DNA of 64,000 nt, from the NCBI GenBank assembly GCA_034670305.1, contig JAXMNT010000021.1, forward strand, positions 1 to 64,000, given 5' to 3'. Positions 4,844 to 45,615 of this stretch are shown here, one piece after another. Each line of letters begins with the position of its first letter. The first letter of the stretch is position 1. Made by a program: the position numbers and the translations under genes. The notes beneath the pieces were generated by a model that searched no databases, was not told the origin of the DNA, and saw nothing but the letters and a program-made list of their open reading frames with translations. The DNA comes from Deltaproteobacteria bacterium. Its GTDB lineage: Bacteria > Myxococcota_A > Polyangia > Polyangiales > Houyiibacteriaceae.

Positions 4844-5523
4844 TGTTCGAGCAGTTCTACGCCGGCGACATCCAACACCCGCTGCTGCTTTGGGCGGCGT
4901 GTGTCGCAGGCGTCGTCTTCGCGGTGGCGCGGCGCCAAGGCGTGCACCCGAGCGTCTACCGCTACGCGCTCGTCGTCGGCGCGGTGGCGTTCGTGGACGC
5001 GTGGCTCACCTCCAACGACATCCCGGGCATTGGCACGTTGCCGGGCGTACTCGCGACCGCAGTGCCGGTGGCCTTCGTGGTGCTGGGCGACCTCCGCTAC
5101 CTGGTGCTGACCGAGAGCCTCGAAGTCGGTGAGGGCGGTGGCGCGATTCGGTTCCGTCTGAAGGGCGTGCTCATCGCGCTCGCGTGGTCGCTGCTCGTGC
5201 CGGCGCTCGCGCAGGTCGTCGTGCGGTTCGTCGTCGTCAGCGACGAAAGCCGGGTGCTGTTTCTGAGCTACGAAGTGCTCTTCTTCGCGCTCGTGCTCCT
5301 GCGACGGCCGTATATGCGTTGGCGGTTGTCCGATACGGGCGCACGCGCCTGGCATCGCAAACTAGATGCGATCGCGCTGCTCTGGTACGGCACCTGGATC
5401 ACCGCGGATGTGATCATCCTCGGCTTCGACCTCGACGTCGGCTACCTCGTCCGTGTGCTGCCGAACTTGCTCTACTACGGCGCCTTCCCCGCGGTGCTCG
5501 TCGCAACCGCACCCAAAGCCTGA
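4843..5523 (+). CDS. Integral membrane hypothetical protein
   Basis: TGATG coupling with upstream gene; several hydrophobic segments. Confidence 0.75.
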   Translation: MFEQFYAGDIQHPLLLWAACVAGVVFAVARRQGVHPSVYRYALVVGAVAFVDAWLTSNDIPGIGTLPGVLATAVPVAFVVLGDLRYLVLTESLEVGEGGGAIRFRLKGVLIALAWSLLVPALAQVVVRFVVVSDESRVLFLSYEVLFFALVLLRRPYMRWRLSDTGARAWHRKLDAIALLWYGTWITADVIILGFDLDVGYLVRVLPNLLYYGAFPAVLVATAPKA

Positions 5524-5548
5524 CCGGCCGAAGCGCAAGCGTCGGCCC

Positions 5549-5768
5549 CGTGCCCGTGTCCGTGTCCGTGCCCGTGCCCGTGGCCGTGCCGACGCCGAAT
5601 CCGAATCCGAAGCCGAAGCCGAAGCCGACGCCGACGCCGACGCCGAAGCCGACGCCGACGCCGAATCCGAAGCCGAAGCCGACGCCGAAGCCGACGCCGA
5701 AGCCGAAGCCGAAGCCGACCGACGCCGAAGCGGAAGCCGAGCCGACGCCGACCCGACCGCCGACGCCG
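5549..5768. repeat. Hexamer microsatellite tract (GTGCCC/GTGTCC then GCCGAA/GCCGAC)
   Basis: Directly visible, between convergent genes. Confidence 0.95.
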
Positions 5769-5771
5769 TTC

Positions 5772-8117
5772 TCAGCTCCGGTCGAGCCAGTGGGGGCCGG
5801 CGGACCAGCCGAGGAAGGGGCGGCGGGCGGGGTGCTTGGTTTCGATGCAGCGGCGCAGGTCCTTCAGCGCCGGAGAGAACCGCGCGACGAACGCACCGGA
5901 GGCCTGCTCGTTCAGCATGGCGTCCGCTTCGTCGACGAACCGGCGCTGCATCGGGTGGCCGTGTGCGCGCTCTCCAAGCGAGAGGAAGAAGAGCATCTGC
6001 CGCCAGCTGTACGCCGCGTTCTTGCGGTGCAGGCGCACGGCGTGCCCGTCGTTGGTCTCGACGCTCAGCAGGGTCACGGCGTACTCGAAACACGCCATCG
6101 CGAGTTCGGGCGCATGGGCCGCGATCTCATCTTCCAGACCGAGCCCGGCGGTGAGGACCGCGAGGTTCTGGCTGGTGAGGATCTGCTGCTGCTCGAGGAT
6201 CATCCCGTTCTCGGCCACGCTCCGCCAAAGTCCGCGGCTCTTGGGCAACGCCGCCCGCTGCGTGCACAGCGCGGCGAACGCATCGCCGCCCGCCCGCCGC
6301 CCGAACGAGAACCAAGCCTTCTTGCCGGCGGCCTTCCGGGCACCGAGCGCGCGGTAGTCGATGTCGTAGTAGCGGGCGTAGAGCGTGCCGGACAGAAGCG
6401 CGCCGGCCTGCTTCGCCGCTTCGAGGAACTTCGGCGAGAAGGTGCCCATGAAGATGTCGGCCGCGACTTCTTCGACGAGCGGCAGCGCGAGACCGCTGCG
6501 CTTCGCGAGCGCGCTGAGTTCTCCGACGAGCTCGTTCGGCACGATCGCGTGCGGGAACTTGGTCATCGCCAAGTGCGAGAGCTCCCGCAACGCGCGGCGC
6601 GGCGCGGCGTGGTCGCCGTCCGTGCGGTGCGCTTCCACGGCGGCTGCCCACGGAAGCTCCTCGAGCCGCACCTGGTGTTCGAGGTCGGTGAGCAGGAGCG
6701 AACGCCGGCGCCGGAACGCCTGGTACAGGCGGCCGTAGAGGGTACGGAGCGACGGGTCTTCGAGACCGCCCGCCACGACATCGGAGGTGATCTGCGGCAG
6801 CAACTGCGCGAACGTGTTGGCGGACGTGACGACGCCTTCGTCGACCAACGTCTCGAGCGGCGCGAACCACGCGCGCATCAACTTCCGGCGGATGCCCGCC
6901 GGCGCCGGCACCCGCACCGCATCGACTTCGAGATCGTCTCCGAGCGACTCGAGGGCGGCCGCGTCGAGGCGCGCCTCCTTCAAGTCCCGCAGCCGGGCCG
7001 CGACCTGCTTGGCCAGATCCGCGTGGAGCGGCGCGAGACACGATGCCTGGGCCGCGCGGTGGGCGCGTCGCGCCTCGCTCGAGGGGAGCCCACGTACTGT
7101 GACGGATCGCGCGAGGATCAGGCGCAGCCGTCCGACCTCCCGGCCGCTCAGTGCACGCAGGTCGCGCACCGCGCGCTCCAGCAGCGCGAACAGGGTGGCG
7201 TGCGCCGAACCTGGCGCGTGCAAGCCGCGCACGAGGGTGTGCCGCGTCCGAGCCAGTCGGTGCTCTGCCACGAGCGTCCGCGCCGCGGAGAGAAACGTGT
7301 CGTCGATGCGCTGAAGCGGCCATCCGCCGTGAACTTCGTAGCGGCCCGCCGAGTCACGCCGTGGCGTGCCGTTCGCATCGAGCGTCACGGTCGGAACCTC
7401 GCCCTCCACCGTCGAGCGCAGAAGGTCCAGCGCCCGATCGTAGAACGCCGCCCAGACCGTCAGGGACTCGCGCTCGGCGACCACGTCCGGCTGCGGACGC
7501 GTCGCGTCCAAGACCGCCGCGACCTCCGCGTTCGATCGGAGCTGGACGCAGGTCGAGGTCGCACGTCCGCGGCCCGGGCGCGGGATCGGAAAGAAGCGAA
7601 GCGTGTGCATCCACGGCGCGATCGCATCGAGCAGAGGCTGGGCTTCTGCGACCCGCCCGTTGGCGACGAGCCACGCCACCACCAGCAGTGCGCCCTCTTC
7701 CGGCACCCCGACGTCGTAGTCGCCCGTCTCGAGCCACAGGCACAGCTCCGCCAGCCCCTCGGACGAGACGAAGTACGCGTTCAGCGCGGCTCGATCCTCG
7801 AGTCCGAACCGCTCGCAGAGCACGGTCTCGTGCGGCTGGATCGGTCCGCCCGCGAGCAGACGGCCGGTGGCGAACCCGCCGGTCACGACCTCGAGCGTCG
7901 CCCAGACCGGCACGTCCGCCAGTGGCTGGCGCCGGCCGACCTGGAGCGCACCAACGAACTGCGCCCGCAGCACCGCGGTCCACTTGATCACCTTGGCGGC
8001 GGCGCGCGCACGCACCGCGGGATCCGCGTGAGACTCGGCCGCCCGCTGAGCCTTGGCCAACTGGTGCGCTGCGTAGGCGGCGCCCATCGCGCCGTGTTCT
8101 TCGTGTGAATCGGTCAT
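5772..8117 (-). CDS. Large hypothetical protein (781 aa), function unknown
   Basis: Long ORF with host-like codon bias; motifs WATLEVVTGGFATG, EEVAADIFMGTFS, ILEQQQILTSQNLA. Confidence 0.85.
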   Translation of the reverse strand: MTDSHEEHGAMGAAYAAHQLAKAQRAAESHADPAVRARAAAKVIKWTAVLRAQFVGALQVGRRQPLADVPVWATLEVVTGGFATGRLLAGGPIQPHETVLCERFGLEDRAALNAYFVSSEGLAELCLWLETGDYDVGVPEEGALLVVAWLVANGRVAEAQPLLDAIAPWMHTLRFFPIPRPGRGRATSTCVQLRSNAEVAAVLDATRPQPDVVAERESLTVWAAFYDRALDLLRSTVEGEVPTVTLDANGTPRRDSAGRYEVHGGWPLQRIDDTFLSAARTLVAEHRLARTRHTLVRGLHAPGSAHATLFALLERAVRDLRALSGREVGRLRLILARSVTVRGLPSSEARRAHRAAQASCLAPLHADLAKQVAARLRDLKEARLDAAALESLGDDLEVDAVRVPAPAGIRRKLMRAWFAPLETLVDEGVVTSANTFAQLLPQITSDVVAGGLEDPSLRTLYGRLYQAFRRRRSLLLTDLEHQVRLEELPWAAAVEAHRTDGDHAAPRRALRELSHLAMTKFPHAIVPNELVGELSALAKRSGLALPLVEEVAADIFMGTFSPKFLEAAKQAGALLSGTLYARYYDIDYRALGARKAAGKKAWFSFGRRAGGDAFAALCTQRAALPKSRGLWRSVAENGMILEQQQILTSQNLAVLTAGLGLEDEIAAHAPELAMACFEYAVTLLSVETNDGHAVRLHRKNAAYSWRQMLFFLSLGERAHGHPMQRRFVDEADAMLNEQASGAFVARFSPALKDLRRCIETKHPARRPFLGWSAGPHWLDRS

Positions 8118-9934: not shown

Positions 9935-10050
9935 GCGGACACTGAAGAGCAACCCCGCGCGGGATGCAAGCGGGGCGTCCGCGCTCACCCCACGGGCCCC
10001 CAACGAAAGAACGGGGCGGACGCCCACGCGTCCGCCCCATTCTGCGTCGA

Positions 10051-10233
10051 CCGGTCACACACACACCAGTCTCACAGGCCGGTCACACACACCGGTCACA
10101 CACACCGGTCACACACACACCGGTCACACACACCGGTCACACACACACCGGTCACACACACCGGTCACACCCGCCGGTCACACCCGCCGGTCACACGCGC
10201 CGGTCACACACACCAGGCACACACGCCGGTCAC
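10051..10233. repeat. Minisatellite, about 13 copies of CCGGTCACACACA (13-15 bp units)
   Basis: Directly visible. Confidence 0.95.
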
Positions 10234-10239
10234 ATGCGC

Positions 10240-11361
10240 CTAGCGCTCGCAGACGAAGGCGCGGACCGAGCCGTCGAGCGCGGCGGTGAAGACGATCTCG
10301 CCGGCCGGGTCGGTGCGGACGGACACGCCGTCGGGCAACGCGACCGCGCCGAGCTCGGCGCCGTTCTCGGTCGACCACGCGCGCAGGGACCCTTCGTCGC
10401 CGAGCGTGAAGGCCACCCGGCCGCCCTGTCCGAGCGCGATGGAGTGCGAGCGGTGGGCGGGCGTCTCGATGGCCACGCCGGCGGTGAGGTCGGCGCCGTG
10501 GAAGAAGCGGACCCGTCCGTCGTCCACCGCGGCGAGCACGTCGCCCGCAACCGCGATCTCTCGGGCCGCGAATCCTTCGCCGCTGACGAACGCGCCGACG
10601 GTCTCTCCGGTCGCGCCACTCCGCACTTCGAGCGCGTGTTCGCCGGCACCGGCGACGACCAGTGCCCCTTCGAGGAAGGCCAGGTCGCGCACGTCTTCGA
10701 CGGCGGTCTCCAGCGGGCCGAAGCTCTCCCCGGTGGCCGGGTCGCGCAGGGTGACGCGGCCGAAGGACGACACATCGGCGTGGGCCACGAGACCGCGGAT
10801 GGCCTCGACCGCGACCGCGCTGATCGCGGTGTCCGGCTCGGTGCCGCCGACGATGTTCGGGAACGAGAACTCCACATCGAGCGAGGTCACGAGCCCGCGC
10901 TCGTCGCCCGCGACCACCGCCATGCCGGCGCCGTCGCGGCCGGGCAAGAACGCGAGATCGGTCGGCACCCCCACCGAGGTCTCGATGCCGTACGCGAAGG
11001 ACGCGGTGTTCAGTTCGGTGACGAACCCATCCAGGGTCCAGAGTTTGACGACGCCGTCGACCGAGCCGACCGCGACCTGGAGGTTCTCGTTCACGGCGAG
11101 CGTGGTCACCTCGCCGTGCTCGGTGGTGTCGTCGTTGTCGATCTCGCCGACCTGCAGGAACGCGCCGCCGTCGTGGAAGCAGCGCTCGAGTCCGGTGACG
11201 AGCGGAGGCAGGGTGACCGGCACGAGCGGCAGCCGAATCTCCACGTCGGCGAGCGGCTCCATGCGCACGGGCGGCGGCAACTCGGTGAACTCCGTGGTGT
11301 CGGCGCAGCCGGTTCCGAGCAGGAGGGAGAAGGCGAGGAGAAGAAGCGGTGTGTGTTTCAT
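10240..11361 (-). CDS. WD40/beta-propeller lipoprotein
   Basis: Lipobox LGTGC; GSVDGVVKLWT and GDEGSLRAWS WD-like repeats. Confidence 0.85.
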   Translation of the reverse strand: MKHTPLLLLAFSLLLGTGCADTTEFTELPPPVRMEPLADVEIRLPLVPVTLPPLVTGLERCFHDGGAFLQVGEIDNDDTTEHGEVTTLAVNENLQVAVGSVDGVVKLWTLDGFVTELNTASFAYGIETSVGVPTDLAFLPGRDGAGMAVVAGDERGLVTSLDVEFSFPNIVGGTEPDTAISAVAVEAIRGLVAHADVSSFGRVTLRDPATGESFGPLETAVEDVRDLAFLEGALVVAGAGEHALEVRSGATGETVGAFVSGEGFAAREIAVAGDVLAAVDDGRVRFFHGADLTAGVAIETPAHRSHSIALGQGGRVAFTLGDEGSLRAWSTENGAELGAVALPDGVSVRTDPAGEIVFTAALDGSVRAFVCER

Positions 11362-11451
11362 GAACACCAAGATGGCCGCTCGATGAGATAGTCGGTAGCC
11401 CAGGTGCGTGCATACGACCCATAGAGGCCATCTATGGGCGAGCGCAGGAGC

Positions 11452-11675
11452 CCGGAGCCGAAGCCGACTCCGAAGCCGAAGCCGACGCCGACTCCGAAGC
11501 CGACGCCGAAGCCGAAGCCGAAGCCGAAGCCGAAGCCGAAGCCGAAGCCGAAGCCGAAGCCGACTCCGACTCCGAAGCCGACTCCGAAGCCGAAGCCGAA
11601 GCCGAAGCCGAAGCCGAAGCCGAAGCCGATGCCGACGCCGATGCCGGCCGACCCAAGCCGACTCCGACTCCGAAG
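11452..11675. repeat. Hexamer microsatellite (GCCGAA/CCGACT/GCCGAT)
   Basis: Directly visible, between the divergent WD40 gene and clpB. Confidence 0.95.
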
Positions 11676-11781
11676 CTGGGTCCGGATCTTTGCGGGCGGC
11701 TTTGGTCGCGGTTGGCACGGCGTGCGTTACCTGCCGCTGTGAGGGTGCGAACGCGGCCGGCGTCGGACGCGATTGGGTGCG

Positions 11782-14937: not shown

Positions 14938-16293
14938 TTACTCGGAATCTGGCAGTTCGACCCGGACCGGGGTGCGCTGGTCGGGTCCGGGCACGCCGAG
15001 CTGGCCGTACATGTTGCTGCCCCAGCAGAACACCCGGCCTCGGGTGTCGAGCGCGCACGCGTGCCGTTCGCCGACATCGAGCGACGCGATGTCGCCGAGG
15101 CCCACCACCGGCACGAAACGTTCGCGTTCGTCGGTGGTCCCATCGCCGAGCTGTCCCGCGAAGTTGGCGCCGCGGCAGAGCGCTCGGCCGCCGGCACGTA
15201 CGCACGCGCTCAGGTACCGCGTCCGGTACTCGGTGACGTCGCTCAGTCCGTCGACCCGGCGCTCGGTCGGCGCGACGCTCGGTGCCCAGCAGTGCAGCGA
15301 ACCGGAGACTACCGCGCACTCGGCGCCGGCGCCGGTGACGTCCCCACGACCGACGCCGACATCGGTCGCGTCGAGATCGACCCGCGCCGTCTCGGTTCGG
15401 TAGATGCGGCTGCCGCTCGGGGAGTGGCCGAGCAGCCGGCCCCAGCAGAAGACGCCGCCTTCGGTCGCCACGCAGGTCGCTTTGTCTTCCGCGCTGATCG
15501 CGAAGGGTCGCGGAACTGGGATCTCCACCGTGCCATCGGCTTCCATCGGCAACCGGAGCAGCTGCCCCTCCAGATCGCTGCCGCGGCAGCGCACCGCGGT
15601 GCCGAGTTCGTGGGTGAGCGCGGCGCAGGTGTGCCGTGTCCCGATCGCGACGTCGAACACGCGTCCACCGTACCCGACCAGGATCGGCCGCTCGACGTTG
15701 CGGCCCTCGTCGAGACCGATCTGCCGCCACGCGTTCGAACCCCAGCACCACAGGTTGCCGGAGCCCGGCTCGTTCGCGCAGGTGTGGCTGCCGCCCATGA
15801 ACACGTCCTGCATCGGCGGCAATCCGTCGACGCGCTGCGGCGTGTCGCTCGGCACGTCCACGCCCTGGCCGATCTCTCCGTCTTCGCTCTGGCCCCAGCA
15901 CCAGACGTCGCCCGCTTCGCGGACCACGCAGGTGTTGTGGTGGCCAGTCGTGATCGAGACGGCGGGATTTGTGGGTTCGGGGCCCGCGTCGGGGAGCGGT
16001 GCGTCGTGGGCGGGTGCGTCGGTGCTGGCGTCGGGGAGGTCCGCGTCGTCGGTGGCGATGGTGTGGGAGCGGTAGCAGCCGGCGAGGGCGAGGAGGGCGA
16101 GGAGGGCGGCGGTAGCGGAAGCGGAAGCGGAAGCGGAAGCGGAAGCGGAAGCGGAAGCGGAAGCGGACGCGGAAGCGGTAGCGGAAGCGGACGCCGAAGC
16201 CGAAGCCGACGCCGACGCCGAAGCCGACGCCGAAGCCGAAGCCGAAGCCGACGCCGAAGCCGAAGCCGAATCCGACGCCGAAGCCCTGTTCAT
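14938..16293 (-). CDS. RCC1-repeat lipoprotein with long (Ser-Ala)n tract before the lipobox
   Basis: HTCA..CWGSNxxGQLG repeats; LALAGC lipobox; ATGA coupling with the upstream gene. Confidence 0.85.
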   Translation of the reverse strand: MNRASASDSASASASASASASASASASASASASASASATASASASASASASASASASASATAALLALLALAGCYRSHTIATDDADLPDASTDAPAHDAPLPDAGPEPTNPAVSITTGHHNTCVVREAGDVWCWGQSEDGEIGQGVDVPSDTPQRVDGLPPMQDVFMGGSHTCANEPGSGNLWCWGSNAWRQIGLDEGRNVERPILVGYGGRVFDVAIGTRHTCAALTHELGTAVRCRGSDLEGQLLRLPMEADGTVEIPVPRPFAISAEDKATCVATEGGVFCWGRLLGHSPSGSRIYRTETARVDLDATDVGVGRGDVTGAGAECAVVSGSLHCWAPSVAPTERRVDGLSDVTEYRTRYLSACVRAGGRALCRGANFAGQLGDGTTDERERFVPVVGLGDIASLDVGERHACALDTRGRVFCWGSNMYGQLGVPGPDQRTPVRVELPDSE

Positions 16294-18506
16294 TCGGCGG
16301 CTTCGGCGGTGTCTTCGAGGCGGGCGACCGTGACCGGCACGCCGTTGATGGCGGCGGTGCCGGTGAGGGCGTCGAGTTGTTCGTGGTCGGTCAGGTCGTT
16401 CATGCTGACGCCGGGCTTCTCTTGGGCGACGCGCTGACGGATGCCTTTGCGGCCGTGGCCGAAGCCGTGGGGCAGGCTGACGACGCCGGGCATGACTTGG
16501 TCGGTGATCTCGGCTTGGGTCTCCACGCTGCCGACGCGGCTGGTGACGCGGACACCGTCGCCGTTCGCGATGCCAAGCGGCTCGGCGTCCTTGGGATGCA
16601 TCATCAGCGTGCAACGCGACTTGCCGCGCATCAGGCGTGGTGCGTTGTGCATCCAGCTGTTGTTGCTGCGCACATGGCGCCGGCCGATCAAGAGCAGTCC
16701 TTCGTGCGCCTCGGCGGTGTCGAGTCGATCGAGGTCGCCGAGGAAACACTCGGGCGCAAGCGCGATGCGGCCCTTCGCGGTTTTGGGGAGCCGGTCCGGC
16801 ATCATCGGGTGCAGCGCGCCGAGATCGATGCCGTGCGGATGCTGCAGCAGCACTTTCAGGGTGAGCTTGCCGGGTTGCCCGAAACGTTTCGGTTTGATGC
16901 CGGCGACGCCCGCGCCGTAGGGCCCGAGGCGCAGACCGGCGTCGACGATCGCGCGCGGTCCGAGTTGTTCGAACGCTCGGACCTGAAGCGTGCGTTTGCC
17001 GAGCTGGCCGCCGCGGAGGATCTCGACCCGGCGCGTGAGGCCGAGAATGATCTCCCAGTCGTGTTTCGCACCGGCCGGTTTGGGGATGACCGCGGGCGAG
17101 AACTTGGCGGTGTTGCGCACCGCGACCGCGTGAAAGATCAGATCGTAGTGATCGCGTTCGAGCGGCGAGACCGGCGGCAGGATCACGTCCGCGTGGCGGG
17201 TGGTCTCGTTGAGGTACGGATCGATCGACACGACGAAGTCGAGGTCTTCGATCGCCTTGTCGAGCTGCGCGCCATTCGGGGTGGAGAGCACCGGGTTGCC
17301 GGCCATCGTGACGAGCGCGCGGATCTGTCCTTCGCCCGGCGTGAGCATCTCTTCGGCCATGACGCTGGCCGGCAGCTCGCCGTTGAACTCCGGCAGGTTG
17401 CGCACCCGGCTGCGCCAGCGACCGAAACTTCCGCGGCCGAGTCCGAAGCCGTTGGCGGCGTCGACGATGTCGATCGCGGGGTTCGGGAACATGACGCCGC
17501 CCGGTCGATCGAAGTGGCCGGTGAGCAGGTTGAGCAGGTTGATGGCCCACGCGTTGAGCCCACCGAACTCTTGGGTGCAGGCGCCGACCCGGCCGTAGAC
17601 CGCGGCGCGTTCGGTCATGCCGATCTCGCGGGCCAGCCGCCGAATCGTCGCGACCGCGATGCCGGTGCGTTTCGCGGCGCGTTCGGCGGTGAACGGCGCG
17701 ACGGCTTCGCGGACCTCCTCGAGCCCATCGCAGACCGGCGCAAAGCGGCCGAGGTCCACGAGGTTCTGCGCGAACAGTTCGTTCACCATCGCGAGCAAGA
17801 AGTACGCGTCGGTGCCCGGCCGGATGAACTGGTGTTCGTCGGCGACGTCGGCGGTCTCGGTGCGCCGCGGATCGATGACCACGACCCGGCCGCCGCGCGC
17901 CTGGATCTCGCGCAGCCTTCGCCGCATGCCGGGCGCGGTCATGATGCTGCCGTTGGACGCCATGGGGTTGGCGCCGATCATGAAGAAGAGGTCGGTGCGG
18001 TCGAGATCCGGGATCGGAAACAGCACCTGGCTGCCGAACATCTTCAAGCTCGCGAACATGTGCGGCAGCTGGTCGACGCTGGTCGCGCTGAAGCGCTGCT
18101 TGGTCTGCATCGCGCGCAGCATCCACGGCCCGTAGAGCATCGCGCCGAGGTTGTGGGCGTTGGGGTTGCCGAAGTAGAGCGCAAGCGCGCCCTTGCCGTG
18201 TCGCTCTTGCGCCGCGTGAATGCCCTGCGCCGCGTAGTCGAGCGCGTCGTCCCACGACATCGGCTCCCAGGTCGCGTGTTCCCCCCGCCCAACCCGTTTC
18301 ATCGGATGGCGAAGCCGATCGGGATCTTCGTAGAGGTCTTGCAGCGCGGTCGCCTTCGGACAGACGTGGCCCTGGCTGAACTCGTCCTTCTCGTCGCCTC
18401 GGATCGAGAGGATGTCGGTGCGGCCCTCTGGACGGTCGTCGAGTTTGATCTCGAGACCGCACATGGCTTCGCAGAGAGGACAGGTGGTGTGAGCGGTTCG
18501 TTGCAT
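16290..18506 (-). CDS. Molybdopterin (bis-MGD) oxidoreductase family protein
   Basis: CPLCEAMCG..CPK Fe-S motif; GANPMASNGS; C-terminal molydop-binding domain (RSNNSWMHN, LPHGFG). Confidence 0.92.
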   Translation of the reverse strand: MQRTAHTTCPLCEAMCGLEIKLDDRPEGRTDILSIRGDEKDEFSQGHVCPKATALQDLYEDPDRLRHPMKRVGRGEHATWEPMSWDDALDYAAQGIHAAQERHGKGALALYFGNPNAHNLGAMLYGPWMLRAMQTKQRFSATSVDQLPHMFASLKMFGSQVLFPIPDLDRTDLFFMIGANPMASNGSIMTAPGMRRRLREIQARGGRVVVIDPRRTETADVADEHQFIRPGTDAYFLLAMVNELFAQNLVDLGRFAPVCDGLEEVREAVAPFTAERAAKRTGIAVATIRRLAREIGMTERAAVYGRVGACTQEFGGLNAWAINLLNLLTGHFDRPGGVMFPNPAIDIVDAANGFGLGRGSFGRWRSRVRNLPEFNGELPASVMAEEMLTPGEGQIRALVTMAGNPVLSTPNGAQLDKAIEDLDFVVSIDPYLNETTRHADVILPPVSPLERDHYDLIFHAVAVRNTAKFSPAVIPKPAGAKHDWEIILGLTRRVEILRGGQLGKRTLQVRAFEQLGPRAIVDAGLRLGPYGAGVAGIKPKRFGQPGKLTLKVLLQHPHGIDLGALHPMMPDRLPKTAKGRIALAPECFLGDLDRLDTAEAHEGLLLIGRRHVRSNNSWMHNAPRLMRGKSRCTLMMHPKDAEPLGIANGDGVRVTSRVGSVETQAEITDQVMPGVVSLPHGFGHGRKGIRQRVAQEKPGVSMNDLTDHEQLDALTGTAAINGVPVTVARLEDTAEAAE

Positions 18507-37286: not shown

Positions 37287-37294
37287 AGCCGCAG

Positions 37295-37620
37295 CCCCTT
37301 GCCCCTGCCCTTGCCCCTGCCCTTGCCCTCGGTTCGGGGCCCGGGGTTCGGGCTCGGCTTCGGGGTCGGCTTCGGCGTCGGCTTCGGCTTCGGCGTCGGC
37401 TTCGGCTTCGGCGTCGGCTTCGGCTTCGGCTTCGGCGTCGGGTTCGGCTTCGGCTTCGGGCTTCGGGCTCGGCGTCGGCTTCGGGGTCGACTTCGGCTTC
37501 GGGCTCGGCGTCGGCGTCGGGTTCGGCTTCGGCTTCGGCTTCGGGTTCGGGTTCGGCTTCGGGCCTGCACCCAAGGGCAAGGGCAAGGGCAAGGGCAAGG
37601 GCAAGGGCGCTCCAAAGGCC
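37295..37620. repeat. Composite repeat: (CCCTTG)n - (GGCTTC/GGCGTC)n - TGCAC - (CAAGGG)n
   Basis: Inverted hexamer arms around a microsatellite core; inverted relative of 40315-40535. Confidence 0.92.
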
Positions 37621-40553: not shown

Positions 40554-41414
40554 CTACGGCGCGATGCCGCCGATTGGGGTGCCGACCAGGGTGCGGATGT
40601 TTTGGAGGGTCACCGCTTCGAGGATCCACACGTCGCCGCAGACGATGAGGGAGGCTTCTTCCTCCATCACGAGGTTCTGTACGTTTGCCCGCGGCAAGCG
40701 CGCTTGCAGGAAGTCGCTCCGGTGCGGGTTGGGCCCGCCCGAATGCAGATCGAGCAGGCCAAGAGGAAATACTTCTTCCTGCACGATGACCACGATGTCG
40801 CAGTCCTCCATGTCCATGGGCTCCGAGATCCGCAGCTGGATCTGCACCATGTCCGGATCCCGATCGGAGATGGAGAAGCCCAGTGTGAGCCCTTCGAGCG
40901 CGATGGAGCGGGACTCGATCTGTTCTTCAGGTGGCGGTTCGCGTCCAGTGAGGAAGTTGCCGAGCGCTTCGCGCTGCGCTTCGTCGAGCTCGATCTCTTC
41001 GTCGCAGGTCCGCAGGCGCGACGCGCCTTCGGTGGCGAGGCGCATCAGATCTTCGCGGCGCACCATGCCGCCGATCTTCTCGTCGTTTCCATCGCGTTCG
41101 TAGGCGACCGAACCGAGCACGAACCGGTTGCGCGCGGTCTCGGCTTCCAGGTGGTCGCAGGCGAAGAGCACGAGCTCACCGCGCGATGCCAGCACGAGCG
41201 CGATCTCGTCCGACCCCGGAATGACCGCGCCGAGGCGGAGCTCGCCGGCTTCGAGCGGGATCGTGACGTGGGTCTCCATCGTCAGTGGGTTCGGCATGCC
41301 GGTTTCTCCGGTCGGTGTCGTGTCGCGGTGCTGGGCGTCGCCGCCTCCGCACCCTGCGCTCGACACCGCGCCCAAACACATCGCTACACACCCGAGGAGC
41401 GTCCGTGACCGCAC
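40554..41414 (-). CDS. Hypothetical lipoprotein
   Basis: GTG start with TATGCT 6 nt upstream; lipobox SAGC. Confidence 0.7.
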   Translation of the reverse strand: MRSRTLLGCVAMCLGAVSSAGCGGGDAQHRDTTPTGETGMPNPLTMETHVTIPLEAGELRLGAVIPGSDEIALVLASRGELVLFACDHLEAETARNRFVLGSVAYERDGNDEKIGGMVRREDLMRLATEGASRLRTCDEEIELDEAQREALGNFLTGREPPPEEQIESRSIALEGLTLGFSISDRDPDMVQIQLRISEPMDMEDCDIVVIVQEEVFPLGLLDLHSGGPNPHRSDFLQARLPRANVQNLVMEEEASLIVCGDVWILEAVTLQNIRTLVGTPIGGIAP

Positions 41415-41435
41415 GCGCGGAGCATACCATCGAAC

Positions 41436-41578
41436 CCCCGTACCCGTGCCCGTGGTTCGGGCTCCGGCGTCGGCATCGGCATCGGCATCGGCCTCGGCAT
41501 CGGCCTCGGCATCGGCATCGGCATTGGCATCGGCATCGGCATCGGCCTCGGCCTCGGCATCGGCATCGGCTTCGGCGC
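41436..41578. repeat. Hexamer microsatellite (GGCATC/GGCCTC)
   Basis: Directly visible, between divergent genes. Confidence 0.95.
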
Positions 41579-41650
41579 CCGCCCCTCTGCGCTTCCCCGT
41601 CGAGCTGCGCACTTCCTTGACCCACCACCCGTCCTCGGTACGTTCTTCGG

Positions 41651-43072: not shown

Positions 43073-44248
43073 CTAGCGGACGACGCCGGTGCGGCTGTCG
43101 TTCGTGACGACCTGCCAGACCAGCTCCTGCATGCGCCGCGCGACCGGTGCGCTGACGCCGTTGGCCGCCGGCAAGCCGGTGGGGTTGCGGCGGTAGATCG
43201 TCGCGTACATCACGAGGCCCACGTAGTACGCCATCGCGGCGCCGTGGTGGATGTCGTCGACGGGACCGCTGTGCACGGTGTTCATGCTGCTCATCCGGGA
43301 GCGCCAGTCGACCGATCCAGCTTCGCTCGCCGGCACGGGCCACTCGTTCGGCCAGTTGCTGTAGCCGTTCTGAATCAGGGTGTGGATGGTGAGTCCGCCG
43401 AAGTCTTCGCCCGCTTCGATGCGGTCGTAGAGCGCGCCGAGCGCGGTGCCGGCCGGGATGAGGCGGACGGTCAGGGTGCCCGAACAATCGCCCGCGCCGC
43501 CGTAGTAGGAATCGGGCGTCGGTGTGCGGCCGGTGGAGGCTTCGTCGGCGATGCGTTCCCAGCGCGGCCGGTCGTCGCGCAGCTGCTGACGCCAGTCGTG
43601 CACGTGCGGCGGATCGTAGTCGCCGTCGGGGTCCGTTCCGTACACGTGGTGCCAGGTCTCGTAGACGAAGAGTTCGGCGTCCGGACGCGCGCTCACGAGC
43701 GAGCAGAAGAACCGCCGCGCGTAGAACGGGGACTGGTGCCACATGTACGCTTGGTCGAGGAAGACGCCTTCGGTGACGACCATCGTGTCGTAGCGGGAGG
43801 CGTTGGTCTCGATCTCGCGTCGGAGGTTGCCGACCTCGTTCCAGTTCCAGCTCATCGGAGCACCGGGCGTGGTGTGCAGGAACTCCGAGTAGGCCTGTCC
43901 GCCGGACCGGGCGAGACCGCTCAGGACCTCGGGGATCGTCTGGGCGCCGCCCTGATACATGTCGCGGTGGCTGACCAGGCTGTGGCCGACGAAGTAGACG
44001 GTGGCGTTGTCGCGCGGCGCCGTCCCGGTGGGAGGCGGCTCGATGTACGCGTCGGTGCCTTCCGGCACGTCGATGCCAACTGTGCCGCTGTCGACGGCCG
44101 AGGAGGCGTCGACGCCGACCTCGCCGGAGTCGGGTCGGTTGGCGTCGGGCGCGTGCTCGTCTGGCGCGACCTGGCGGGCCACGCCGACACAGCCCAGTCC
44201 ACCGATTGGGAGGAAGAGAAGAGCGAGGGTGAGGTGCGCGGATTTCAT
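43073..44248 (-). CDS. Lipoprotein with SGNH-hydrolase-like domain
   Basis: Lipobox GLGC; YFVGHSL block I; DDIH. Confidence 0.75.
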   Translation of the reverse strand: MKSAHLTLALLFLPIGGLGCVGVARQVAPDEHAPDANRPDSGEVGVDASSAVDSGTVGIDVPEGTDAYIEPPPTGTAPRDNATVYFVGHSLVSHRDMYQGGAQTIPEVLSGLARSGGQAYSEFLHTTPGAPMSWNWNEVGNLRREIETNASRYDTMVVTEGVFLDQAYMWHQSPFYARRFFCSLVSARPDAELFVYETWHHVYGTDPDGDYDPPHVHDWRQQLRDDRPRWERIADEASTGRTPTPDSYYGGAGDCSGTLTVRLIPAGTALGALYDRIEAGEDFGGLTIHTLIQNGYSNWPNEWPVPASEAGSVDWRSRMSSMNTVHSGPVDDIHHGAAMAYYVGLVMYATIYRRNPTGLPAANGVSAPVARRMQELVWQVVTNDSRTGVVR

Positions 44249-44398
44249 CGAAGCCGGCTATATGCGCGAGCCAGCAAACGCCCGCAACCGGTTGTGGGGA
44301 TTTCTCCCAGCGTTTGACCGCACTCTCGGGTGCCGTGGGGATTGGAAACCCGGCCGCGGCACCCACGGAGCCCTGGATCGAAACAACCCGCGCAATCC

Positions 44399-44796
44399 TA
44401 GCAGGTCGCTGAATAGCGACCTGCTCCCTTGCCGTTGCCCTTGCCCGTGCCCTTGCCCGCGTCGTGGACGCCGTGTGTTTCGCGACGGCGAGGCCGCGAA
44501 TCGGAGCCCGATGCCCAGCGGACGAAGCCGCCGGGCATCGGTCGGTGCTACGCGGTGCAGCTCCGCAGCCGCGCGACGCGTAGGAGGTTGTATGCGGCCC
44601 CGGCCAGGTAGGCGGCGAACTGTGTCTTGCGTCTGCCTCGATATTCATGGGTGTGCCCCCAAGAAGTATCGAACGGGCTCTCGCCACCTCGAGCTCAAGC
44701 GATCTGACCGCTGATCCGCGGGCAAAGGCAAGGGCAGGGGCAGGGGCAAGGGGCAGGCTGCGAGAACGCCCTGCGGCGTTCTTCAGCAGCCTGCTA
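44399..44796. mobile_element. Putative non-autonomous element: palindrome plus hexamer inverted termini enclosing a four-helix-bundle gene remnant
   Basis: Left TAGCAGG..CCTGC-(CCCTTG)n-CCCGCG and right CGCGGG-(GGGCAA)n-GCAGG..CCTGCTA are inverted; right end duplicated at 23-125. Confidence 0.65.
44510..44714 (+). pseudogene. Degraded four-helix-bundle (23S rRNA IVP-like) gene
   Basis: Fragments GIGR..TRRRLYA..R*AANC and CLDI..KYRTG..LE-LKRSDR* in two frames resemble EG.G..DRRRFY.IARGSA.EC..LD..Y..G..LL.RIVAML. Confidence 0.55.
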
Positions 44797-45120: not shown

Positions 45121-45615
45121 GTGACGAGACCGTCGACGATCCCGATGGATGGGCGTGCGCTGACCGCAGCCGAGCAGGTCGCACTGCTCGACGAGATGGC
45201 GGACATCATTCAGGCGAGCCACCTGTTCAAGTCGCTCGACACCGACGGCCGCACCGAGGTGCTGGAGTCCGGCTACGTGATGACGTTCCACGAGAACGAC
45301 GTGGTCATCAAGCAGGGCGACGTCGGCGAAGTGATGTACCTGATCCTCCGCGGCAAGGTCGCGGTCGAGACGGCGACGCCGGGCGGCACGATCCAGTTGG
45401 CGGAGCTCGGTCACGGAGCGTGCGTCGGTGAGGTGAGCGTGCTCAGTGGTCAGATGCGAACGGCGACGGTGACGGCGCTCGAGGACGTCGACGCGGTCGC
45501 GTTCCACAAACACCGCATCGAGCGGGTGCTCCAGAAGTTTCCGCGGGTTCGAGAGATCCTCGAGTCGATCGTCGATGCGCGCGCACGCGACACCATCGAA
45601 AAAATCATCGGCTGA
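45121..45615 (+). CDS. Stand-alone cyclic-nucleotide-binding domain protein
   Basis: VIKQGDVGEVMYLILRGKV; GEVSVL..RTATV phosphate-binding cassette. Confidence 0.92.
   Translation: MTRPSTIPMDGRALTAAEQVALLDEMADIIQASHLFKSLDTDGRTEVLESGYVMTFHENDVVIKQGDVGEVMYLILRGKVAVETATPGGTIQLAELGHGACVGEVSVLSGQMRTATVTALEDVDAVAFHKHRIERVLQKFPRVREILESIVDARARDTIEKIIG

Follow-up and report, generated by a model that had tools for sequence, protein, structure and literature searches.

The window analysed here is a stretch of 64,000 nucleotides (G000:C21:1-64000), and its first position is also the start of contig C21. At 44398-44796 it contains a short element that begins within CTAG (44398-44401) and has the dinucleotide TA outside both ends, as the left (44399-44400, inside the CTAG) and right (44795-44796) copies of a target duplication. 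The left terminal inverted repeat (44401-44424), which lies on the 3' side of the transposase gene and is IRR by IS convention, is folded back by an inner inverted copy, and its outer arm is common to plain IS5 relatives. It is followed on the plus strand by an array of the hexamers CCCTTG/CCGTTG/CCCGTG and then CCCGCG (44426-44461), as in the parent element L118 described below. At the right end an inverted hexamer array on the minus strand (44717-44752) precedes the terminal inverted repeat of the transposase 5' side (44753-44794; IRL by convention), again folded back by an inner inverted copy. The left hairpin folds as DNA at -13.1 kcal/mol (z -7.7) and the right one, which is longer, has a z of -6.5; none of 200 shuffles was as good in either case. 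The original prediction had described a left end of CTAG, hairpin and hexamers, a right end in the inverted arrangement with a different hairpin, and a sister end at 23-125, and these observations hold. The sister, identical to the right end of the window copy at 96% over 103 nt, is the right end of a second copy on the plus strand (1-125) with gene tail, hexamers, a hairpin at 81-123 and TA at 124-125. It belongs to the older (B) allele and is cut off because the window begins where contig C21 begins.

The neighbouring genes encode a 391-aa protein with no NCBIfam match (43073-44248) and a small protein resembling cyclic-nucleotide-binding domains (45121-45615). Long arrays of the hexamers CCGAAG/CCGACG occur in the window at 5496-5782, 11365-11699, 16047-16327, 37287-37592 and 41409-41611, and elsewhere in G000 such arrays often come after a short CCCTTG tract. 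A tandem array of 13-15-nt ACCGGTCACACAC lies at 10037-10252.

The interior had been read as a four-helix-bundle gene decayed by stops and frameshifts, and an interior without HMM similarity to that family (PF05635) had been named as evidence against this reading. A six-frame search with two four-helix-bundle profiles gave best i-E values of 0.21 and 1.5, both non-significant, so that by profile the similarity is lacking. The same type of search with the IS5 transposase profile matched the minus strand at 1.2e-9. The larger remnant comprises the last 31 codons and the TAG stop of an IS5-family transposase (44548-44643, minus strand), of which 44551-44643 shares 30 of 31 residues with the C-terminus of the L118 transposase; the window peptide alone had its best NCBIfam hit, at E 0.017, to an IS1182 model. 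The 3' untranslated region of the transposase gene occupies 44462-44547 on the same strand. At the DNA level, 44668-44714 on the plus strand is the 3' tail with TGA stop of a PF05635/TIGR02436 gene, longer derivatives of which exceed the PF05635 cut-off, and to this extent the helix-bundle reading was right. About 11 of 117 codons and the stop remain, with a 1-nt and a 27-nt deletion; the premature stop that had been proposed is absent.

Aligned with the parent, the window copy consists of parent positions 1-246 (window 44399-44644, 96%) and 1619-1721 (94%), its right-hand part being the last ~155 bases of the parent with the gene tail included. About 1.3 kb of the parent is absent at a GATATC junction, which carries a 23-nt remnant (44644-44666) of a 76-nt two-hairpin insert, as judged from alignment to the copy at C22:19074. 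Coding capacity is absent from the window copy, and the ends of the parent are retained. It had been called transposase-less, which is correct in that this copy has no working transposase; given that its largest coding remnant is a transposase and that the parent encodes one of the IS5 family, it does not represent a transposase-less class of element. The window copy is very probably an older, internally shortened descendant of an IS5-family insertion sequence of 1.72 kb with a passenger gene, that is, of a transporter IS (tIS). In itself it is ordinary debris, and its value lies in the intact parent.

The parent was reached by two steps. A 53-aa transposase tail on contig C73, which as a fragment matches NF033581 at 6e-11 and below the cut-off, retrieved plain IS5 elements whose outer ends are the same and, from two named MAGs (L061; L078/L079), deleted forms that carry the passenger. 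With an 80-aa fragment of the passenger a group of mostly 117-aa proteins was reached, and aligning 42 of the 120 listed proteins led to the best 80 of 367 metagenome loci. Complete elements are present in L118, where the element spans 223-1943 (1,721 bp, on a metagenome contig), and in L119. The search for a transposase with matching ends, suggested with the original prediction, found an IS5 transposase between the same ends in both.

In L118 the transposase runs on the minus strand from 1436 to 375 (354 aa, DUF772 plus DDE domain) and the passenger on the plus strand from 1507 to 1860 (117 aa, PF05635), with 70 bp between the two start codons. This head-to-head pair occurs in 7 of the 13 best loci (L118-L121, L123, L126, L129); besides the complete L118 and L119, a full-length transposase match is found in L121, L123 and L129, while L124 retains a transposase start and L130 consists of ends and passenger only. 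The L118 and L119 transposases score 262 and 261 bits against NF033581 (cut-off 140), with PF05598 and PF01609 domains. Against the IS1182 model NF033551 the L118 protein reaches 195.5 bits, below the cut-off of 270, and has 354 residues for 488 model positions. D144, D253, E307 and the motif R303-x3-E307-x6-K314 are invariant across 20 aligned transposases, which we take to be the DDE/YREK signature. The L118 passenger scores 78.1 bits against PF05635 (cut-off 33.8) and 79.3 against TIGR02436 (cut-off 24).

Each end of the parent consists of a hairpin followed by a tandem array, and the left and right arrays match. GCAGG..GCTGA arms stand at both ends and are common to plain IS5 relatives. 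At either end of L129 and L130 the hexamers give way to a 20-nt repeat unit. Relative to the gene, the two end hairpins of L130 have changed places in comparison with L129, as an inversion between the arrays would produce. One of the two arrays lies beyond the transposase, and the arrays therefore mark the ends of the mobile unit and not just the leader of the gene. Plain IS5 and passenger-bearing elements share a GATCGAC...GATC motif ahead of the transposase start, and the passenger start occupies the position just upstream of this motif where plain IS5 has its left end. In L128 (after ~1550) and L131 (after ~1415) the right end of a passenger-bearing element is interrupted, presumably by a group II intron.

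The whole autonomous form was seen only in metagenome contigs. A plasmid search matched 213 records, none of which spans 80% of the element. The L118 transposase has homologues at E<=1e-60 in 20 of 401 genomes of the phylum, and none of the 30 loci fetched carries the passenger; close passenger homologues occur in 8 of 301 genomes of the class, G000 included, and none of the 7 other loci has an IS5 match. DNA searches with the window copy against 40 relatives gave short matches only, nearly all to hexamer arrays. Searches of L118 for sigma-70 promoters, terminators and Rfam families returned no match.

The element inserts in TA, mostly within CTAG. Of the 21 paired copies, 17 are flanked by TA at either end and several do not have CTAG on both sides. 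C-T-A precedes the ends at more than 90% at each position; position -3, for example, is C at 115 of 126 ends on one side and 99 of 106 on the other. The check for empty sites and target duplications proposed with the original prediction yielded paralogous empty sites in repeats that fit a 2-bp TA duplication and not one of 0, 3 or 4 bp, the pairings C78/C87 and C22/C20 being inferred from their flanks. A 4-bp CTAG duplication was considered and rejected because copies flanked by GTA|TAG, GTA|TAC, CTA|TAA and CTA|TAT exist. At the window locus the element is missing from the relatives X5 and X7, whose sequence there consists of 587 and 635 other letters, and neither offers a clean orthologous empty site. 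As many as 112 of 218 ends lie at a TAG closing an ORF of at least 80 codons, compared with 545 of 2802 other CTAG strand-sites. Insertion at such a stop codon, seen for about half of the ends, would leave the host gene intact, and either selection or targeting could explain the excess. CTAG as such occurs only 1615 times in G000, and 203 of these sites are formed at ends of this IS.

A pattern search of G000 returned 126 left and 107 right ends, which bears out the multi-copy mobile unit of the original prediction. Of 210 contig ends, 149 run into the element (70 via the left end and 79 via the right), which places it at some 70% of the breaks in the assembly. All 61 left ends of the A allele and 59 of its 62 right ends are near contig ends, and 53 of the 61 and 56 of the 62 show no difference across 115 nt. 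The B allele and others, to which the window copy and its sister belong (both B), are diverse and mostly contig-internal. The depth in sequencing run X1 is 2327 for a contig that lies in the transposase tail and 38.6-39.1 for the flanks, a ratio of about 60 that is only a rough guide, from runs that may stem from the source sample; the loose end at 44643 continues into the transposase in the same run. In the assembly itself, none of the six NF033581 matches exceeds the cut-off, and the fragments together cover 71% of the parent's transposase and 100% of its passenger. G000 holds two cohorts: about 60 nearly identical copies at which the assembly is interrupted, and older, degraded ones, among them the window copy. 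From the contig breaks and the depth, the A-type copies are probably full length, and we infer that full-length copies spread in a recent burst and that their core was lost during assembly. That the element transposes is suggested indirectly, by some 60 near-identical ends with differing flanks.

When all PF05635 genes of the genome were collected with their flanks, as had been proposed, 37 of 47 matches lacked these ends, an outcome that had been named beforehand as speaking against the original prediction; they belong to other cassette types. The proposed link to hexamer tracts holds for 274 of 572 CCCTTG-type tracts, which lie in this element, and fails for the 298 outside it. Other unassembled repeats start at CCCTTG/GGGCAA tracts at nine contig ends (C2_3, C11_3, C14_5, C15_3, C21_3, C50_5, C51_5, C71_5 and C88_5), as if these elements targeted the hexamer tracts. 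IS5-like ends without hairpin or hexamers at C84:18349, C72:18006, C5:181546 and C41:1964 are traces of plain IS5 relatives.

The older copies show how the parent decays. Among 59 older derivatives mapped on it, the ends are preserved far more often than the middle, and most have private, often multiple, colinear deletions. The window copy would have lost its core between two GATATC sites, one in each gene, and this junction is common to 11 of the 59. One of these eleven is free of an insert, and together with the intact ends of the window copy and the better preservation of ends in general this would fit descent from a single deleted ~400-bp founder that was amplified in trans, as a MITE, by the IS5 transposase. 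Against such a founder, a C/T marker splits 7:4 among the eleven and 10:5 among the rest, 10 of the 59, from both groups, show a second, recurrent deletion (parent 106-132), and the ten copies that carry an insert each look different at the junction. The marker split and the recurrent second deletion favour repeated losses at short repeats over the amplification of a single MITE, and we regard the founder as possible but doubtful. The mobilisation in trans of the deleted form that the original prediction had invoked finds no support in derivatives with mostly private breakpoints. The window copy most likely decayed in place, though with both ends intact it could still be mobilised in trans.

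G000 has only 78 GATATC sites, and two families of hairpin inserts, one of 76 nt at ~117 loci and one of ~127 nt at ~44 loci, are flanked by such sites more commonly than by any other; the GATATC sites of the deletion would thus be preferred targets of these small inserts. Members of both families insert at GATATC/AATAT sites and pile up as tandem arrays. The right end of the passenger gene is a hotspot for inserts, and older copies in G000 lose the gene freely. G000 also has 11 Y1-type (PF01797) genes of ~235 aa, of which 3 lie within 1 kb of a hairpin insert compared with 3.5% of random sites, numbers too small to tie these genes to the mobilisation of the inserts. The four Y1 loci inspected (C20:45721, C31:83470, C38:23649 and C68:18551) have their own, different long inverted flanks.

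These Y1 genes bear on the idea of an independent transposase-less unit, built around the four-helix-bundle gene and moved by another enzyme such as a RAYT or an RT. An intact transposase is absent from the assembly, Y1-type enzymes are present, and L130, L125 and L127 keep an intact passenger without a transposase. However, the window copy contains a transposase remnant, its outer arms and TAG context are common to plain IS5 elements, and the inspected Y1 flanks are of another kind. L118 and L119, as intact parents with the same ends, refute this idea, and we consider it extremely improbable.

The dN/dS of the passenger, 0.10-0.40 (21 pairs) beside 0.09-0.19 for the transposase (10 pairs), indicates that it is under purifying selection. 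In a quick tree of 38 different transposase sequences, the 5 full-length passenger-bearing ones form one branch (SH-aLRT 96), which suggests a single capture by this IS branch, in a sample that is uneven in that the passenger-bearing transposases were found via the passenger. In a tree of 76 passenger rows, the close clade comprises 16 rows (support 96), 9 of them of this IS type and not in one branch; IS-borne passengers are not monophyletic and require 5 changes on the tree. In L131 the passenger lies tail to tail with a two-ORF transposase of a second IS5 subgroup (NF033580, both ORFs over the cut-off), and L125 and L127 represent two sites of a single cassette of ~780 bp, flanked by CTAG, whose terminal repeats differ from those of the IS. 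In both types of element, inverted hexamer arrays lie inside the ends; the test for such arrays across the passenger tree required equal unit lengths and therefore undercounts them, and its counts are without shuffle control.

Avd is the partner of the reverse transcriptase of diversity-generating retroelements (DGRs). To our knowledge, PF05635 is widespread and has no shown function outside DGRs. The passenger profile matches structure 2GSC at E 8e-13, and PMC10053308 describes PF05635 as resembling Avd, names 2GSC and suggests that 2GSC is homologous to Avd. By analogy, the passenger protein may be a working partner of the transposase, as a cofactor or as a factor for end pairing or target choice. 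Besides this relationship, the two genes share a 70-bp divergent region, the passenger remains under purifying selection beside transposases diverged to 74-79% identity, and the gene occurs in two IS5 subgroups and a third type of cassette. However, the 33 other transposases in the tree are without such a gene in their loci, and beside most of the gene's close relatives there is no IS5 transposase. Transposases without passenger and passengers without IS5 transposase mean that neither partner needs the other, and we judge a working partnership rather unlikely.

Alternatively, the passenger might be kept for a benefit to the host cell, with the IS as a mere vehicle. Purifying selection and the 37 further PF05635 matches that G000 keeps outside the IS would suit this, but the free loss of the gene from older copies and the insert hotspot at its right end would not, and we know of no host phenotype for the passenger. 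We hold such a benefit to be unlikely.

Our preferred reading, by a modest preponderance, is that the four-helix-bundle gene and the mirror-image repeats form a hitch-hiking module in terminal-repeat elements, kept for an action on the element's own folded arms or transcript and not as a catalyst. The transposase would bind the outer GCAGG arms and move the unit by DDE transposition, the mode of other IS5 elements. A further reading, which we put forward as a tentative and not very probable proposal, is that the helix-bundle gene takes an active part in its mobile element: the protein would bind or help to build the mirror-image arms of whichever unit it belongs to and thereby boost or steer transposition. 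Its substrate would be the arrays, which are hexamers here and 20-mers in L129/L130, are matched left to right, and include one array 1.2 kb away beyond the transposase. If this were true, PF05635 would be a general accessory factor that DDE transposons have picked up repeatedly, and would correspond to Avd in retroelements. Because the gene stands beside the transposase in an autonomous IS of 1.7 kb, the parent offers a complete small system for testing it, for which transposase-less cassettes are unsuited.

Among known systems, the parent agrees with the IS5 type of NF033581 (transpos_IS5_4; DUF772 plus DDE_Tnp_1) in a transposase above the cut-off with conserved DDE residues, in outer ends and TAG context like those of plain relatives, and in the short target duplication at a preferred site (TA/CTAG) of the IS5 family. 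It differs from this type by the divergent PF05635 gene and by ends doubled into a hairpin, followed by an array that matches the array of the opposite end. The window copy resembles MITEs and mobile insertion cassettes in its kept ends and lost transposase. MIC231 is an IS-derived mobile insertion cassette, and in the cassettes L130, L125 and L127 the passenger is intact, whereas the window copy has lost the passenger too. The 11 of 59 derivatives that have its junction in common differ in inserts and markers. As for REP/RAYT systems, the four inspected of 11 Y1 loci have other long inverted flanks, and the ends here are of IS5 type. The element also differs from a DGR, having no reverse transcriptase in its 1,721 bp, which are filled by two genes and the ends. 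With PF05635/TIGR02436 proteins (23S rRNA IVS protein; Avd-like; PDB 2GSC) the passenger shares scores over both cut-offs and the match to 2GSC, but it does not lie in rRNA (no Rfam match in L118) and sits head to head with a DDE transposase.

ISfinder reportedly lists passenger-bearing members of other IS families, and the family alone may therefore not be new. The literature matches listed, drawn from outside subscription journals, ISfinder and supplements, include no IS with a PF05635 passenger in their accessible text. By the definition in 10.1101/2021.05.26.445724 and PMC9330008, a tIS has the structure of an IS whose inverted repeats enclose a passenger gene, and the former, a TnCentral preprint, restricts the term to IS1595 and IS66. 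The passenger lies inside the inverted repeats beside an intact transposase in L118 and L119, and the description thus applies to the parent and not to the window copy. Compared with the tIS so defined, the parent is of IS5 and not of IS1595/IS66, and its cargo is not a resistance or regulator gene. Its conserved four-helix-bundle passenger is an unusual cargo for a transporter IS.
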